Source: Alphaproteobacteria bacterium (GTDB lineage Bacteria > Pseudomonadota > Alphaproteobacteria > Bin95). Taken from it: a stretch of DNA of 64,000 bases. Under the pieces are notes generated by a model. The model ran no database searches, had not been told where the DNA came from, and saw nothing but the letters and a program-made list of their open reading frames with translations. Below, piece after piece: positions 22,354 through 25,167 of the stretch. Where the stretch lies: NCBI GenBank assembly GCA_964291285.2, contig OZ219787.1, positions 640,001 through 704,000 of the forward strand, given 5' to 3'. Both the position numbers and the translations under genes were made by a program. Position 1 is the first letter of the stretch. Every line of letters begins with the position of its first letter.

Positions 22354-22416
22354 CCTGTTCATATTTTTTGAATTATTTCTACTATAGAGCTTGATTTTTT
22401 AAAAGTTTATGGTAAT
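22354..22416 (+). promoter_or_regulatory. AT-rich promoter-like block at the start of element copy 1
   Basis: TTCA-N7-TGAA palindrome, then CTTGAT and GGTAAT, conserved with copy 2. Spacing is shorter than canonical sigma70, so promoter function is inferred. Confidence 0.45.
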
Positions 22417-22560
22417 TTGACCCTGAGGATGAGGGCGACGTTCGCGGGGCCGCCTCGTCTTCCGCGTCGGCGTCGGCGCGAAAAAAGCGGGGATTATCCG
22501 CTTGACTAAATGACGGCGAGTCCCCATATTCTGACTCAAGCAGTCGGAACGGAGGCCGTC

Positions 22561-23529
22561 ATGGCTGGCAAGCACTACCGCGAAGGCGTGACCATCATGG
22601 AGTTGGGAGAGATGTTCCCGACCGAGGAAAGCGCCCGCGAATGGTTTGAGGCGAAGGTCTGGCCGAACGGTCGCCATTGCCCGCGCTGCGGCCATACCGA
22701 GACGATTGAATGCACCGGCAACCCGCCGATGCCCTACTACTGCCCCGGCTGCAAGCGGCATTTCAGCGTCCGCATCGGCACCGTCATGGAGCGGTCCAAG
22801 CTCTCGTTCCGCAAGTGGGTTTGGGCGATCTACCTGCACCTGACTTCGCTCAAGGGCGTCTCCAGCGTGAAGCTGGGCCGGGACATAGGCGTCCGGCAGG
22901 CAACCGCATGGTTCATGCTCCAGCGCATCCGCGAAGCCTTCAAGCGCGACGACGAGCCGCCCATGGACGGGCCGGTAGAGGTGGACGAGGTCTATCTGGG
23001 CGGGCTGCGCAAGAACATGCACAAGGCGAAGCGGGAGAGCCTTGAGGGTCGCGGCGCTGTCGGCAAGGACATTGTCGTTGGCGTGAAGGACCGGGGCACG
23101 AAGCAGGTTCGCGCCCGCCATGTCCAGCACGCGGACGCGCCGTCGCTGGCAGGCTTCGCCGCTCACAACGCCCGCATCGGCACGACGGTCTATTCGGACG
23201 AGGCGACGGTCTATCGGGCGCTGCAAGTGTGGTTTCAGCATGAAGCGGTCAATCACTCCGCTGGCGAGTATGTCCGCCAGCAGGCGCATACCAACGGGAT
23301 CGAGAGCTTCTGGGCCATGTTGAAGCGGGCGCACAAGGGCGTCTATCACAAGTTCTCGCCGAAGCACCTTCACCGCTACATCGCGGAGTTCGCCGGGCGG
23401 CACAACATCCGCGAAGCCGGGACGCTGGCACAAATGGCGGGACTGGCGGCCGGCATGGTCGGGAAGCGCCTGACCTACGCCCGGCTGATTGCCGAGAACG
23501 GGCTGGCGAGCGGGGCGCGGCCATACTAG
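22561..23529 (+). CDS. IS1595 family (ISXO2-like) DDE transposase
   Basis: Zn ribbon CPRCG...YYCPGCKRHFSV, HTH, VEVDEVYLGG, VYSDE, HTNGIESFWAMLKR, YIAEF; GGAGG RBS before MAGKH. Confidence 0.96.
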   Translation: MAGKHYREGVTIMELGEMFPTEESAREWFEAKVWPNGRHCPRCGHTETIECTGNPPMPYYCPGCKRHFSVRIGTVMERSKLSFRKWVWAIYLHLTSLKGVSSVKLGRDIGVRQATAWFMLQRIREAFKRDDEPPMDGPVEVDEVYLGGLRKNMHKAKRESLEGRGAVGKDIVVGVKDRGTKQVRARHVQHADAPSLAGFAAHNARIGTTVYSDEATVYRALQVWFQHEAVNHSAGEYVRQQAHTNGIESFWAMLKRAHKGVYHKFSPKHLHRYIAEFAGRHNIREAGTLAQMAGLAAGMVGKRLTYARLIAENGLASGARPY

Positions 23530-24732
23530 TCACGCCTCTATCAGCCACGGGAACAGGGCGGCGCGCTTCTGCATACGCTCTTTCAGGAATTGCTCTTGCG
23601 AGCGCGTTCCCTTCGACGAATTGCAGGCGCCGCACAGCAGCCAAAGGTTCTCAAGGTGGTCGGTCCCGCCATGCGCTTGCGGGACGATATGGTCCACCGT
23701 CAGATTGCGCTTGCGGAAATGCTCCCCGCAACCGCCGCAAAAGCCTTCCTGCTGGCCGTAGAGCAAGTCCAGGTGCGTCCGGTAGTGGGGAAGGTCTCCC
23801 AGGTCCGTGCGGCCCGGCTGGTCCGTCCTGTGGACAACATCGCCGGTCTTGTAGAGCGGGATTTCGTCGAGGATGCCTTGCAGGCGCGTCGTGACGAGCT
23901 CGGCCGCCTTCGCGGAAATGTCGATGCCGATCCACTGGCGCTGTAGCCGCTCCGCCGCCACGGCGGCCGTCGCGCAACCGCAAAATGGGTCCAGCACGAC
24001 ATCGCCCTCGTTACTCGACGCCTTGATGATGCGGTCCAGAAGGGCAAGCGGCTTCTGCGTCGGATAGCCGACATATTGCGCCTTTTGGCGGGGCGCTATG
24101 GCGAGTCCATTTCCTTTCTCTTGCGGCCACCATGTTTCAGGGACTTTGCCGTCCGTCAGCCCATATTCGCCCTCGATAAATCCAGAACCGCGCAAACCGT
24201 CTTTGAAATTCGCCTTGGTCTTGCCATGGTGCTGAATACGCACGGCGTCGGCATTGAAGGTCCATGTCTCGCCGACTGAATACCAGTGGATTGTATCGTG
24301 CTTTCGGTTGAACTGGCGCATATGCGGTGAGCCGGGGCCAGTATAGCACCAGATAATCTCGTTCCGGTGATTAAGGCGTCCGAAAATCGCGTCCATGAGC
24401 ATCTTGAGATAATGCGACGCGAACGGGTCACAATGCAGATAGATGCTGCCGGTCGGCTTCAGGACACGCCGCATTTCGACGAGGCGTTGCGCCATCATGC
24501 CGAGATAGGCCGCCATGCCGCGCCCGTGCGCCAGCCGGGCCGCGTCGATTATGGCGAAAGTCGTCGGGTCACGCTCTTGCAGCAGTGCCAGATAGACGCG
24601 GTCCGCGTCGTCGAAGGTCCATGAGTCCTTGAAGGCAGCCCCGGCCGCCTCCGAGCCTATGGGTGCGCTATAGGTGCGGTTGGAGTTGAAGGGCGGGTCG
24701 AGATAGATGAGATCGACCGTGGCGCTGTTCAT
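23530..24732 (-). CDS. Site-specific N6/N4 DNA methyltransferase (beta class) fused to a C-terminal HNH endonuclease; true start probably further upstream
   Basis: Motif IV LIYLDPPF precedes YPTQKP and motif I LDPFCGCAT. The C-terminus CGGCG...LTVDHIVPQAHGGTDHLENLWLLCGACNSSKG is a Zn-binding HNH. The frame stays open upstream (NWRNRTIWTRDNLHVLRG) to TAG at 24820-24822. Confidence 0.9.
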   Translation of the reverse strand: MNSATVDLIYLDPPFNSNRTYSAPIGSEAAGAAFKDSWTFDDADRVYLALLQERDPTTFAIIDAARLAHGRGMAAYLGMMAQRLVEMRRVLKPTGSIYLHCDPFASHYLKMLMDAIFGRLNHRNEIIWCYTGPGSPHMRQFNRKHDTIHWYSVGETWTFNADAVRIQHHGKTKANFKDGLRGSGFIEGEYGLTDGKVPETWWPQEKGNGLAIAPRQKAQYVGYPTQKPLALLDRIIKASSNEGDVVLDPFCGCATAAVAAERLQRQWIGIDISAKAAELVTTRLQGILDEIPLYKTGDVVHRTDQPGRTDLGDLPHYRTHLDLLYGQQEGFCGGCGEHFRKRNLTVDHIVPQAHGGTDHLENLWLLCGACNSSKGTRSQEQFLKERMQKRAALFPWLIEA

Positions 24733-25167
24733 GCCTCTCAGGACATGGAGATTGTCGCGCGTCCAGATGGTGCGGTTGCGCCAGTTGGCTTCCTGCGTCG
24801 CCGCTGCGTCGCCTGCCTTCTACCCTATCAGATTTCCTCGCCATGCTTGATCTCCCGCTGTGAAGAGCACAGGCTAGGAGACGGGCTGATATTTAGTCAA
24901 ACGGATAATCCCCAAAAAAGCCGTTGAGAAACGGACGGGATAAGTGCGTCCCGTGCCACGCCCGCGGGCAGGTACAGGCGCAATCAGGCGCACGATACGC
25001 GCGGATAAGGGTCCCGCCGCCCGGATGAGCCGGCGGCGGAGAGGACGGAACGAAACCGGAGCGACAGGAAGAACCCATGCCGAAGACAGAGGGCCACCGA
25101 AACCGGATGGAATACCCGTACCCCATGCCCGAACGGACGACAGGGTATGCGTCGCGTGCATGCAAAC

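Follow-up and report, generated by a model that had tools for sequence, protein, structure and literature searches.

We found a 2,425-bp transposon of the IS1595 family that carries, next to its transposase, a gene in which a DNA methyltransferase (MTase) is fused to an HNH nuclease. On balance we lean towards reading this cargo as a one-protein restriction-modification enzyme, whose expression would be switched by slippage in an 11-nt repeat. New here are the conserved start codon of the cargo gene, which lies upstream of the 11-nt repeat and is in frame in none of the element's four genomic copies, and the occurrence of frame-shifting repeats at the same place in other lineages. All positions given below refer to the window, that is, the whole stretch of 64,000 nucleotides that was analysed.

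Anatomy and mobility of the transposon

The element spans positions 22489-24913 and is bounded by a left terminal inverted repeat at 22489-22525 (plus strand) and a right one at 24877-24913 (minus strand), which pairs with the left arm. The arms are 37 nt long and 81% complementary; both begin GGGGATTATCCG, and their outer 23 nt (22489-22511 on the left, starting GGGGATTAT) match at 22 of 23 positions. A target-site duplication of 8 bp flanks the element, with AAAAAAGC at 22481-22488 and AAAAAAGC again at 24914-24921 (neither copy is assigned a strand). An initial annotation of this DNA had described 23-bp inverted repeats and an 8-bp duplication around a transposase and a convergent gene that directly abuts it, and this description holds. 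The element contains no genes beyond these two, and the stop codon of the transposase ORF (TAG, 23527-23529) and that of the cargo ORF (TGA, tca on the plus strand, 23530-23532) adjoin with zero gap. Such a structure is far beyond chance expectation.

The transposase ORF occupies 22510-23529 on the plus strand and encodes 339 aa from its first ATG. Judging from the N-termini of paralogues and from the sequence, translation likely starts at ATG 22561, behind a GGAGG at 22551-22555, which would yield a protein of 322 aa. The assignment to the IS1595 family, already made in the initial annotation, is borne out by Pfam (DDE_Tnp_IS1595, PF12762, 1.1e-38, profile positions 2-153 of 153; Zn_ribbon_IS1595, PF12760, 5.4e-08) and by the NF033547 transpos_IS1595 model (5.6e-54, 183.3 bits at a cut-off of 75). 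A putative promoter, the consensus match TTGACT-17-CATATT at 22502-22530 (plus strand), is located inside and just after the left repeat; it is the sole sigma-70-like match in 22400-25000, where shuffled sequences give a mean of 0.5. All plasmid-borne IS1595 transposases in PLSDB are less than 60% identical to the transposase described here, the best reaching 43%.

Four copies of the element, all with identical ends, are present in this genome at four different sites. Two copies are 100% identical, and the other two are 97% identical by BLAST, differing only by a 66-bp repeat expansion and, in one copy, two substitutions. Perfect 8-bp duplications flank copies A1 and A3 (AAAAAAGC and TTTGGTTA), and copies A2 and A4 carry each other's duplication halves. 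The empty site is preserved in a contig of run X2, which stems from another sample of the same organism: in this contig, 22480 is directly followed by 24914 and the 8-mer occurs once, so that 2,433 nt of the window are missing, with an overlap of 8 letters at the joint. In run X1, the element forms a 2,425-nt contig at a depth of 497, compared with 136 for its flanks. None of the 60 related genomes searched contains the whole element, and the best match (77%) covers the transposase part only. We conclude that the element is a real transposon, which has been active recently and moves as a unit. Its DDE transposase would move the entire 2,425-bp unit and duplicate 8 bp of its AT-rich targets on insertion.

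It belongs to the cargo-carrying insertion sequences (transporter IS, tIS), with a passenger gene inside its terminal repeats that is unrelated to transposition. In common with the IS1595-family tIS (Siguier, Gagnevin and Chandler 2009, as cited in PMC11891212), its DDE transposase has a zinc ribbon at the N-terminus, its inverted repeats are short, its target duplication measures 8 bp, and its passenger lies inside the repeats. Its GGGGATTAT ends would fit the end consensus ggnnatTAT of the ISNwi1-type subgroup (ISNwi1 and ISNwi1+ in ISfinder). The cargo itself is different: in excerpts from PMC11891212, the passenger named for the IS1595 family is a transcription regulator (ISNha5), a methyltransferase passenger is named only for IS220 of the IS1380 family, and a methyltransferase-nuclease fusion is not named as IS1595 cargo. 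Among the papers listed on IS1595 passenger genes, none deals, by title and abstract, with an MTase-HNH cargo.

Domains and conservation of the cargo protein

As annotated from the internal ATG 24732, the cargo ORF spans 23530-24732 on the minus strand and encodes 400 aa. It comprises, on the same strand, an MTase domain at about 23896-24717 (Pfam N6_N4_Mtase, 4e-46, residues 6-279) and an HNH domain at about 23602-23739 (Pfam HNH, 4.8e-14, residues 332-377). In the methylase, motif IV (DPPF, 24688-24699, minus strand) precedes motif I (DPFCG, 23977-23991, minus strand), which is the beta-class order, and the C-terminus of the protein carries CxxC..DH..N..CxxCN. The beta-class and HNH motifs that the initial annotation had read from the letters are thus located and matched by Pfam models. 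The methylase is probably of the N6-adenine type, going by the DPPF rule.

Selection appears to have kept both halves of the protein intact. DPPF, DPFCGC, the four Cys, DH and the two Asn are conserved without exception in the aligned relatives (20 of 20 and 32 of 32), and dN/dS of the cargo is 0.10 against locus L009 and 0.09 against L010 (0.11 for the linker and HNH part alone). The initial annotation had named a catalytically inactive HNH domain as an argument against its reading; the HNH motifs are intact. The region between the two domains behaves differently. Four relatives (P0008, P0009, P0018 and P0019) are 85-93% identical to the query over only 45-51% of its length and have unrelated central regions, which indicates that the target-recognition region has been swapped among close relatives that otherwise show 82-93% identity. 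Whether the cargo also varies among related IS copies had been raised as a question, and in this genome it does: they encode an MTase-HNH fusion (446 aa), an MTase with a separate HNH ORF, and an MTase-Mrr_cat fusion (544 aa). An IS1-family element of this genome also carries an MTase-HNH gene, and locus L083 encodes an MTase-T5orf172 fusion.

These features bear on the idea that the cargo is mainly an epigenetic regulator, that is, a phase-variable methyltransferase like the Mod proteins of phasevarions, with an HNH domain that serves a non-defence purpose (nicking, repair or DNA binding) and without restriction. The methylase core indeed scores like a Type III Mod (MTase_III, 7.8e-46; only generic methylase models of PADLOC match the cargo), and the PDB sequence search, which otherwise returned only stand-alone methylases and Cas9-type HNH domains, gave a weak match to EcoP15I Mod. 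Phasevarions are classically built on mod genes under repeat control, according to excerpts from PMC5909438 and PMC7383803, and the ORF list of the element holds only transposase and cargo, with neither a separate restriction gene nor a Res helicase-nuclease partner. However, the catalytic and zinc residues of the HNH domain are invariant and under purifying selection, and the fast replacement of recognition domains on near-identical backbones is typical of defence specificity turnover. Moreover, Mrr_cat and T5orf172, which are true nuclease folds, fill the nuclease position in paralogues, so that nuclease activity appears to be a selected property. A mainly regulatory role therefore seems decidedly improbable to us.

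Distribution of the fusion and association with insertion sequences

The fusion is a member of a large family without a name, most of whose members occur in lineages that typify sponge microbiomes. NCBIfam and PADLOC detect its methylase part and an HNH of generic type, and nothing more. The initial annotation had allowed that the fusion might already be a characterised family. It is a large family indeed, but literature searches, PADLOC, NCBIfam and PDB yielded no characterised member. A literature search for such a fusion by name found no paper, and none on an MTase-HNH fusion was among the papers listed on phase-variable methyltransferases and on restriction-modification in sponge symbionts. 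Among the plasmids in PLSDB, 490 records match the methylase part and none covers at least 80% of the protein; the HNH fusion is therefore present in none of them. Some family members adjoin other defence genes (XamI/Eco57I, Dcm, RAMA, SMODS).

An IS1595 transposase adjoins the cargo gene at 14 of the 79 best family loci, in tandem at ten, convergently at three and divergently at one. At nine of these 14 loci, GG(G/A)ATTA(T/C) end repeats enclose both genes, with identical 8-bp duplications at six and 7/8 matching ones at two. The other 65 loci have no IS1595 transposase beside the gene and lie mostly among housekeeping genes, and no IS1595-type end repeats were found within 2.5 kb of them. 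The association with IS1595 ends, the absence of which had been named as an argument against the initial annotation, thus exists, but only a minority of members show it. The 183 neighbour ORFs examined included no match to a DDE transposase family. This genome itself harbours cargo-carrying elements of four lineages with both ends located (A, B, D and E; 11 copies altogether), and a pair (C) whose ends were not found; most of its IS1595 copies are without an MTase-HNH gene. Element D combines the cargo with an IS1-family transposase, and IS1-like fragments occur at locus L013. Inspection by eye showed one GGGAATTAT end directly upstream of the gene at locus L079.

On the cargo tree, from which four frameshifted matches (L038, L072, L076 and L086) were left out, the IS association is scattered: the 17 IS-linked rows require 14 changes, and 85 of 500 shuffles give a count as low. 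Transposase and cargo identities are uncorrelated (Spearman 0.12). Co-divergence of the two genes was rejected on this ground, and the cargo has been exchanged repeatedly.

The initial annotation had also considered a nuclease that helps the transposon to be retained or to home, by analogy to TnpB and IscB. More broadly, the cargo might serve the transposon itself, either by an HNH break that aids transposition, retention or homing, or by methylation of the transposon ends that times transposition, by analogy to Dam and IS10. Such a role would fit the recurrence of the IS1595 association, its IS1-family counterpart, the several cargo-carrying lineages and pair C in this genome, and the HNH domain, which is most similar to those of IscB and Cas9. 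Against it stand the 65 loci without an IS1595 transposase or nearby IS ends, the scattered association, the uncorrelated identities and variable gene order, the many IS1595 copies here without such a gene, and recognition regions that change while the end repeats stay GGGGATTAT. TnpB and IscB are RuvC-containing RNA-guided nucleases with an adjacent guide RNA, encoded in IS200/IS605- and IS607-type elements. The cargo resembles them as a nuclease gene beside a transposase and in its IscB-like HNH domain, but has no guide RNA locus and no RuvC domain detected in the Pfam scan; the IscB model (guided_IscB) matches the HNH stretch only, reaching 42.5 bits where 175 are required, and a transposase adjoins only a minority of the family members. 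We consider a helper function of this kind very unlikely. Recognition-region swaps, nuclease-domain swaps (HNH, Mrr, T5orf172), dN/dS of about 0.1 and the invariant catalytic motifs argue for a one-protein restriction-modification enzyme instead, and the mobile single-polypeptide module that the initial annotation had proposed as its first reading is also the one we favour.

Start codon, 11-nt repeat and reading frame

The annotated start of the cargo gene, ATG 24732, is preceded only by a GAGAGG one base away, and it is probably not the ancestral start. The frame continues upstream of it through 24733-24819 (minus strand), without any ATG, GTG or TTG, and encodes the conserved N-terminal segment NWRNRTIWTRDNLHVLRG. 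This 18-aa segment is intact, identical at 18 of 18 positions to the N-terminus of P0019, and at most of the 79 related loci it comes after a start codon. Further upstream, at 24842-24844 (minus strand), lies the ATG that represents the conserved cargo start, with GGGAG at 7-nt spacing and a peptide that begins MARKS. The MARKS start of the relative P0005 is in frame with the conserved N-terminus, and a same-genus element in genome G010 starts with MARK, followed by a different repeat, (GACAGCGC)x10.6.

An 11-nt tandem repeat (ctgcgtcgccg on the plus strand; 24793-24814, minus strand) sits between ATG 24844 and the conserved N-terminus, and its unit length is not divisible by three. The window copy and A2 have 2 units, A3 and A4 have 8. 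With either number, and hence in all four copies, ATG 24844 is one base out of frame with the cargo ORF and leads into an out-of-frame peptide of 58 or 80 aa. According to frame arithmetic, 3, 6 or 9 units are needed to join this ATG to the ORF, which would result in a protein of 441-463 aa. Since the difference between 2 and 8 units is a multiple of three and leaves the register unchanged, no frame-changing event is seen within this genome. Three units are present in one sponge-metagenome contig (depth 4.5, about 89% identity), which ends before the ATG.

Gene callers begin the cargo at the internal Met, so that the real start and the repeat are both missed. P0001, P0002, P0004, P0008, P0009 and P0028 are called from an internal Met as well; with many close relatives called in this way, the shorter protein might be the real product, or the 'off' register might reflect decay.

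Repeats of other kinds are found at the same place elsewhere in the family: (GCGACCG)x20 in L010, C9 after the ATG in the IS1-type element of this genome, and C14, C15, G12, G9 and C9+C11 at other loci. Frame-shifting repeats occur in 9 of 79 5' windows and in 45 of 2,711 controls (odds ratio 7.6, Fisher p 1.4e-5), where the controls are mostly coding, the 5' windows include intergenic DNA, and windows of one locus are not independent. This accumulation of frame-shifting repeats at the 5' end of the cargo gene suggests phase variation.

A cargo that is dead or dying in this genome would produce part of the same picture: the repeat expansion would be a knock-out, the transposon would spread with a useless passenger, and the repeats of the relatives would be incidental low-complexity leaders. 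All four copies being out of frame with the conserved start agrees with this, as does the reference sequence being 'off' in 7 of 10 readable repeat-bearing lineages, a count in which calls at homopolymer loci are unsafe because homopolymer lengths are error-prone in long-read metagenome assemblies. In-frame stops in L020, L030 and L034, and frameshifts at the four loci left out of the cargo tree, would also be expected from decay. Yet the frame from 24819 to 23533, about 430 codons, is open in all four copies and identical except for the repeat and a single substitution in copy A4, which adds no stop, and the N-terminal segment has kept its full identity to P0019 although it looks untranslated. 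Unrelated repeat units (7, 8 and 11 nt, poly-C, poly-G) at the same position in separate lineages, enriched relative to controls, make up a pattern that selected contingency loci, but not random decay, should leave. We thus hold decay to be unlikely and a switchable restriction-modification gene to be the better reading.

Proposed function and comparison with known systems

In the mechanism that we propose, the cargo would join a beta-class amino-methyltransferase, a variable central target-recognition region and a C-terminal HNH nuclease in one chain. A single recognition module could direct both the methylation of host DNA and the cutting or nicking of unmethylated incoming DNA by the HNH domain. 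It counts against this mechanism that a single HNH site in a monomer nicks one strand only. Slippage in the 11-nt repeat would turn the full-length protein on or off, with the present register predicted to be 'off'. Methylation, cleavage, a role in defence and reversible switching within populations are what we infer from this architecture.

Type IIC/IIG enzymes (MmeI, Eco57I, BpuSI, BtgZI) similarly combine nuclease and methyltransferase in one chain with one swappable recognition module, as described in excerpts from PMC4081073. In most Type IIC enzymes, a PD-D/EXK nuclease at the N-terminus precedes a gamma-class methylase; BtgZI, an odd member with an N-terminal alpha-class methylase and a C-terminal PD-(D/Q)XK nuclease, shows that such an order can work (PMC4081073, same excerpts). 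The cargo described here departs from the usual architecture with its beta-class methylase and C-terminal Cys4 HNH domain. It also differs from Type III Mod/Res systems, in that its Mod-like methylase has no Res in the element.

Phase-variable restriction-modification is known from simple-sequence-repeat tracts in Type III mod and Type I genes (PMC5909438, PMC7383803, in part) and from Cj0031 of Campylobacter jejuni, a Type IIG enzyme under poly-G control (PMC4889913, in part). As in these genes, a hypermutable repeat inside or just after the coding start would decide on methylase production in the cargo, and Cj0031 is, like the cargo, a one-protein enzyme. The genes described in these sources are chromosomal, belong to host-adapted pathogens and have homopolymer or 4-5-nt repeats, whereas the cargo has an 11-nt unit (7 or 8 nt or homopolymers in relatives), resides inside a transposon and occurs in uncultured sponge-type lineages; its switching is predicted from the repeat and the reading frame.

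More tentatively, the family as a whole could consist of mobile contingency loci, i.e. one-protein restriction-modification enzymes that cross phyla in sponge microbiomes on IS1595 and IS1 transposons, each with its own repeat switch, and whose arrival in the 'off' state spares the naive genome. We regard this broader view as possible, though doubtful at present. Arrival in the 'off' state would let the transposon settle and multiply in an unmethylated genome without killing the host. In the rare event that the repeat slips to 'on', subpopulations with methylated DNA and resistance to phages would arise, and exchange of the recognition and nuclease modules would supply new specificities. Thanks to the switch, a self-restricting cargo could still transpose and be transferred horizontally.

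If the reading as a switchable restriction-modification gene is true, a cargo-carrying insertion sequence, a single-chain restriction-modification enzyme and repeat-driven phase variation are united in one 2.4-kb unit. An uncharacterised enzyme architecture, a beta-class methylase with a C-terminal HNH domain and exchangeable modules, would be added to the repertoire of restriction enzymes, and the fusions could be new specificities or nicking enzymes. The logic of contingency loci, which has been studied mostly in host-adapted pathogens, would then extend to mobile elements of sponge communities, which are dense and rich in phages. The passage of a potentially self-toxic gene from one phylum to another would also become easier to understand.

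Structure of the element

The element at 22489-24913 is certainly a transposon, and the core observation of the initial annotation, inverted repeats and an 8-bp duplication around a transposase and a convergent cargo gene that abut with zero gap, can be read directly in the sequence. The terminal inverted repeats (22489-22525 and 24877-24913) are 37 nt long and 81% complementary, match at 22 of the outer 23 positions, and begin in each arm with GGGGATTATCCG. They are flanked by the directly read target duplication AAAAAAGC (22481-22488 and 24914-24921). The two long ORFs inside the repeats meet stop to stop. The transposase ORF on the forward strand (22510-23529) matches Pfam DDE_Tnp_IS1595 (1.1e-38) plus the IS1595 zinc ribbon, and scores 183 bits against the NCBIfam IS1595 transposase model, above its cut-off of 75. 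Its start is most likely ATG 22561, which is preceded by GGAGG and coincides with the aligned N-termini of paralogues; the left end also holds a promoter-like TTGACT-17-CATATT, by consensus match only. The cargo ORF, annotated on the reverse strand (23530-24732), matches Pfam N6_N4_Mtase (4e-46, residues 6-279) and HNH (4.8e-14, residues 332-377), in agreement with the methyltransferase and C-terminal HNH motifs read initially.

Recent mobility

The element is mobile and was recently active, as four copies in its own genome and an empty site demonstrate. This genome comprises five contigs (6.1 Mb, 68% GC), of which C3 contains the window. Copy A1, in the window, is identical to A2 (C3:2119247-2121671), while A3 and A4 contain 66 extra bases and A4 also two substitutions. 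A1 and A3 each have a perfect duplication of their own (AAAAAAGC and TTTGGTTA); the left and right flanks of A2 are AATCCGAA and CATTACTG, respectively, whereas at A4 (C2:1045193-1047683) these two 8-mers have changed sides. Such swapped flanks are as expected from a reciprocal crossover between copies on two contigs, an IS-mediated translocation or inversion, but might also stem from an assembly mis-join at the repeat. In the public sequencing run that covers the full region, one contig of 2,425 nt coincides with the element; its depth of 497, versus 136 for the flank, is compatible with about four copies. The empty site is a 1,173-nt contig from a second sample with the same organism label, in which 22480 is joined straight to 24914 and the joint shares 8 letters.

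Two runs from other samples of the organism (X2 and X3) contain, over 22489-24192, a transposase variant of about 93% identity. Beyond the transposase stop, the X2 contig continues with 764 letters unlike the 3' part of the window cargo, which suggests a sister element whose cargo differs in sequence. Despite the GC-rich genome, the duplicated 8-mers of this element (A) and of two further units of the genome, B and E, are AT-rich (AAAAAAGC, TTTGGTTA, CAAGAATA, CTTTTTTG and AAACTAAA), as are duplications at related loci elsewhere (AAAATTTT, AATGATTT and TCTGTTTT). The 8-mers of A, B and E and of six related loci suggest a preference for AT-rich targets.

The cargo family and its exchange between transposons

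The methylase-HNH fusion is common, with at least 8,000 relatives (every scored candidate was a match). Of the best 120, nearly all have the two Pfam domains together, under names no more specific than 'DNA methyltransferase' or 'hypothetical'; both domains also occur together in several ESM Atlas clusters, which have 56-123 members. A collection of species-representative genomes yielded at least 594 stretches encoding relatives. The overwhelming majority of the best 79 loci lie in metagenome-assembled genomes whose lineages are typical members of sponge microbiomes (Poribacteria, Dehalococcoidia, Poriferihabitaceae, Latescibacterota, Caldilineaceae and others); words of the window were found in small shares in three sponge-metagenome runs. 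Among 72,556 plasmids searched, 490 records matched the methylase part, and none of them covered the HNH part.

In an iterated HMM search, an IS1595 transposase directly adjoined the cargo gene at 14 of the best 79 loci, in tandem at 10, convergently, as in the window, at three and divergently at one. At nine of the 14, from Acidobacteriota, Chloroflexota, Rhodothermota and Pseudomonadota, end repeats starting with GG(G/A)ATTA(T/C) enclose both genes, with six identical 8-bp duplications and two of 7/8. The association of the fusion with IS1595 ends holds for these nine, a minority; at the 65 loci that have no IS1595 transposase beside the gene, no such ends were found within 2.5 kb. Pfam scans of 183 neighbouring ORFs at the 65 unlinked loci found no DDE transposase families; the neighbours are mostly housekeeping genes plus two integrases, with tandem methylase-HNH paralogues at L049, L063 and L032 and defence genes (XamI with Eco57I, Dcm, RAMA, SMODS) beside some. 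Just upstream of a stand-alone methylase-HNH gene, L079 (4640-4840) has about 18 copies of a TGGCTTT-type repeat and then one IS1595-like end, GGGAATTAT, an arrangement that could be what remains of a transposase-less cassette. Paralogous methylase-nuclease genes stand in tandem, two or three per array, at L049:3388-7775, L063:3444-7384 and L083:12-3728; in the last, a methylase-T5orf172 fusion adjoins two more methylase genes, one truncated ahead of its HNH part.

Sequence comparisons indicate that the cargo is exchanged between transposons and not co-inherited with the transposase. IS linkage is scattered on a cargo tree of 80 proteins, from which four frameshifted rows were left out (14 changes for 17 linked rows, equally low in 85 of 500 shuffles), and transposase and cargo identity matrices are uncorrelated over 16 pairs (Spearman 0.12, equally high in 512 of 2,000 permutations). 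The nearest relative of the window protein (83%) is a stand-alone gene at locus L009, where DNA similarity to the window ends at the gene borders. In G010, a genome of the same genus, an element has the same ends and convergent layout with a transposase of 74% identity and a cargo of only 34%.

In the window's own genome, four lineages with cargo have defined ends and represent two IS families; for a further pair (C), no ends were found. Besides the element under study, the four comprise unit B (C3:1207871-1210444, also on C2 and C1), 2,574 bp in three copies with an own duplication each, which combines an IS1595 transposase with separate, overlapping ORFs for a methylase (314 aa) and HNH (226 aa); unit D (C3:1268788-1271925), 3,138 bp in three copies with ends GGTAGTG..., which pairs an IS1-family transposase with a 403-aa methylase-HNH protein; and unit E (C3:1124272-1126886), 2,615 bp with duplication AAACTAAA, in which the IS1595 transposase is split and the methylase is fused to Mrr_cat (544 aa). 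In pair C (C5:334601-336886), an IS1595 transposase adjoins a 446-aa methylase-HNH gene. Element D also has an ORF of about 78 aa (L090:2822-3130, reverse strand) between its end and the methylase-HNH gene; it starts MPTGPQGQKRP.., has a basic C-terminus, and is closely followed by a second ATG plus a C9 tract.

Probable function of the cargo

DPPF precedes DPFCG, so the methylase is of the beta class; its Asp-Pro-Pro-Phe/Tyr motif presumably denotes N6-adenine, by the usual rule. PDB sequence matches of the methylase core are stand-alone beta-class enzymes (RsrI, MboIIA and others), and those of the tail are Cas9-type HNH domains. In alignments with 20 and with 32 relatives, DPPF, DPFCGC, the four HNH cysteines, the Asp-His pair and both asparagines are invariant. 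Compared with its two nearest loci, the cargo shows dN/dS values of 0.10 and 0.09, and the linker and HNH part alone gives 0.11; the HNH motifs are intact. Residues of about 150-215 are hypervariable in sequence and length, and four related proteins (P0008, P0009, P0018 and P0019) share 85-93% identity with the window protein in their N- and C-terminal parts around unrelated central regions. The nuclease is exchanged as well, for Mrr_cat in unit E and for T5orf172 at L083.

Swapped central regions, an exchangeable nuclease, invariant catalytic residues and purifying selection together correspond to how a restriction-modification specificity system behaves. The cargo is thus probably a one-protein restriction-modification enzyme, as initially proposed, in which a single recognition module would serve the methylase and the tethered nuclease alike. 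It is unlikely that nuclease or methylase instead serves the transposon as a transposition helper, because most members of the cargo family lack a transposase, the end repeats are constant while the recognition regions vary, and most IS1595 copies in the own genome are cargo-free. The same holds for the TnpB/IscB-like aid to retention or homing suggested initially. In principle, the cargo comes closest to the Type IIC/IIG enzymes among described systems (PMC4081073). The enzymes described there combine PD-D/EXK with a gamma-class methylase, or, in BtgZI, PD-(D/Q)XK with an alpha-class methylase, whereas the cargo joins a beta-class methylase to HNH.

A frame-shifting repeat at the 5' end

The annotated start at 24732 is probably an internal methionine, by which gene callers would miss the true 5' end and a repeat within it. 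Upstream of this ATG the cargo frame stays open to 24819 with no start codon and encodes NWRNRTIWTRDNLHVLRG, which is identical to the N-terminus of P0019 (18/18) and matches the post-start segment in most of the 79 loci. A further ATG at 24844, with GGGAG ahead at 7-nt spacing, opens a peptide starting MARKS..; in P0005 (75% identical, 440 aa) the same start is in frame with the shared N-terminal segment, and in the window it is one base out of frame. Between this ATG and the conserved N-terminus lie 11-nt repeat units (24793-24814); A3 and A4 have six more of them, which make up their 66 extra bases, so copies hold 2 or 8 units. By computation, ATG 24844 is joined to the ORF only at 3, 6 or 9 units (441, 452 or 463 aa), and 2 or 8 units, as found here, give off-frame peptides of 58 and 80 aa. 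The four copies in the own genome show no frame-changing length difference. One sponge-metagenome contig of about 89% identity and depth 4.5, which ends before the ATG, has 3 units, one extra.

Frame-shifting repeats recur at this position in other lineages, with differing unit sequences. Locus L010 has (GCGACCG)x20 between ATG and N-terminus and the G010 element (GACAGCGC)x10.6 after MARK.., both out of frame; L013 has (GCCAGCCC)x7 at the cargo 5' end, and element D has C9 after its ATG, one base from in frame. Homopolymers, whose lengths are unreliable in long-read assemblies, are out of frame at L066 (C15), L039 (G12) and L087 (G9) and in frame at L036 (C14) and L009 (C9 plus C11). At L072, C17 (4980-4996) lies within the DPPF codons and the gene is frameshifted. 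Tracts, defined as homopolymers of at least 8, at least 4 copies of a 4-11-nt unit not divisible by three, or at least 6 copies of a 2-nt unit, occurred in 9 of 79 5' windows, one of them (T8 in L068) within a gene whose locus is truncated at the start, as against 45 of 2,711 control windows taken at the same loci, which are mostly coding DNA and not independent (odds ratio 7.6, Fisher p 1.4e-5).

Start codon, hypermutable tract and ORF would form the layout of phase-variable restriction-modification genes, of which Type III and Type I systems provide known examples (PMC5909438, PMC7383803). Cj0031 is a phase-variable one-protein Type IIG enzyme (PMC4889913), with which the predicted cargo shares both this layout and the one-protein organization. 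We lean slightly towards the plausible reading that the 11-nt repeat acts as an on/off switch of the cargo gene.

Implications

It is established that IS1595-family insertion sequences can carry cargo (PMC11891212, citing Siguier 2009). The fusion forms a large family, but the literature searches brought up no characterised member and no publication on either a beta-class methylase-HNH fusion or a repeat-switched transposon cargo. To the known cargo-carrying elements the window adds direct evidence of recent movement, in the form of four copies and an empty site, and evidence of a shuffling of cargo and backbone, with several cargo-carrying lineages on two IS families in one genome. It further adds the swapping of both the recognition and the nuclease domain, and a recurrent frame-shifting repeat at the probable true 5' end of the cargo.
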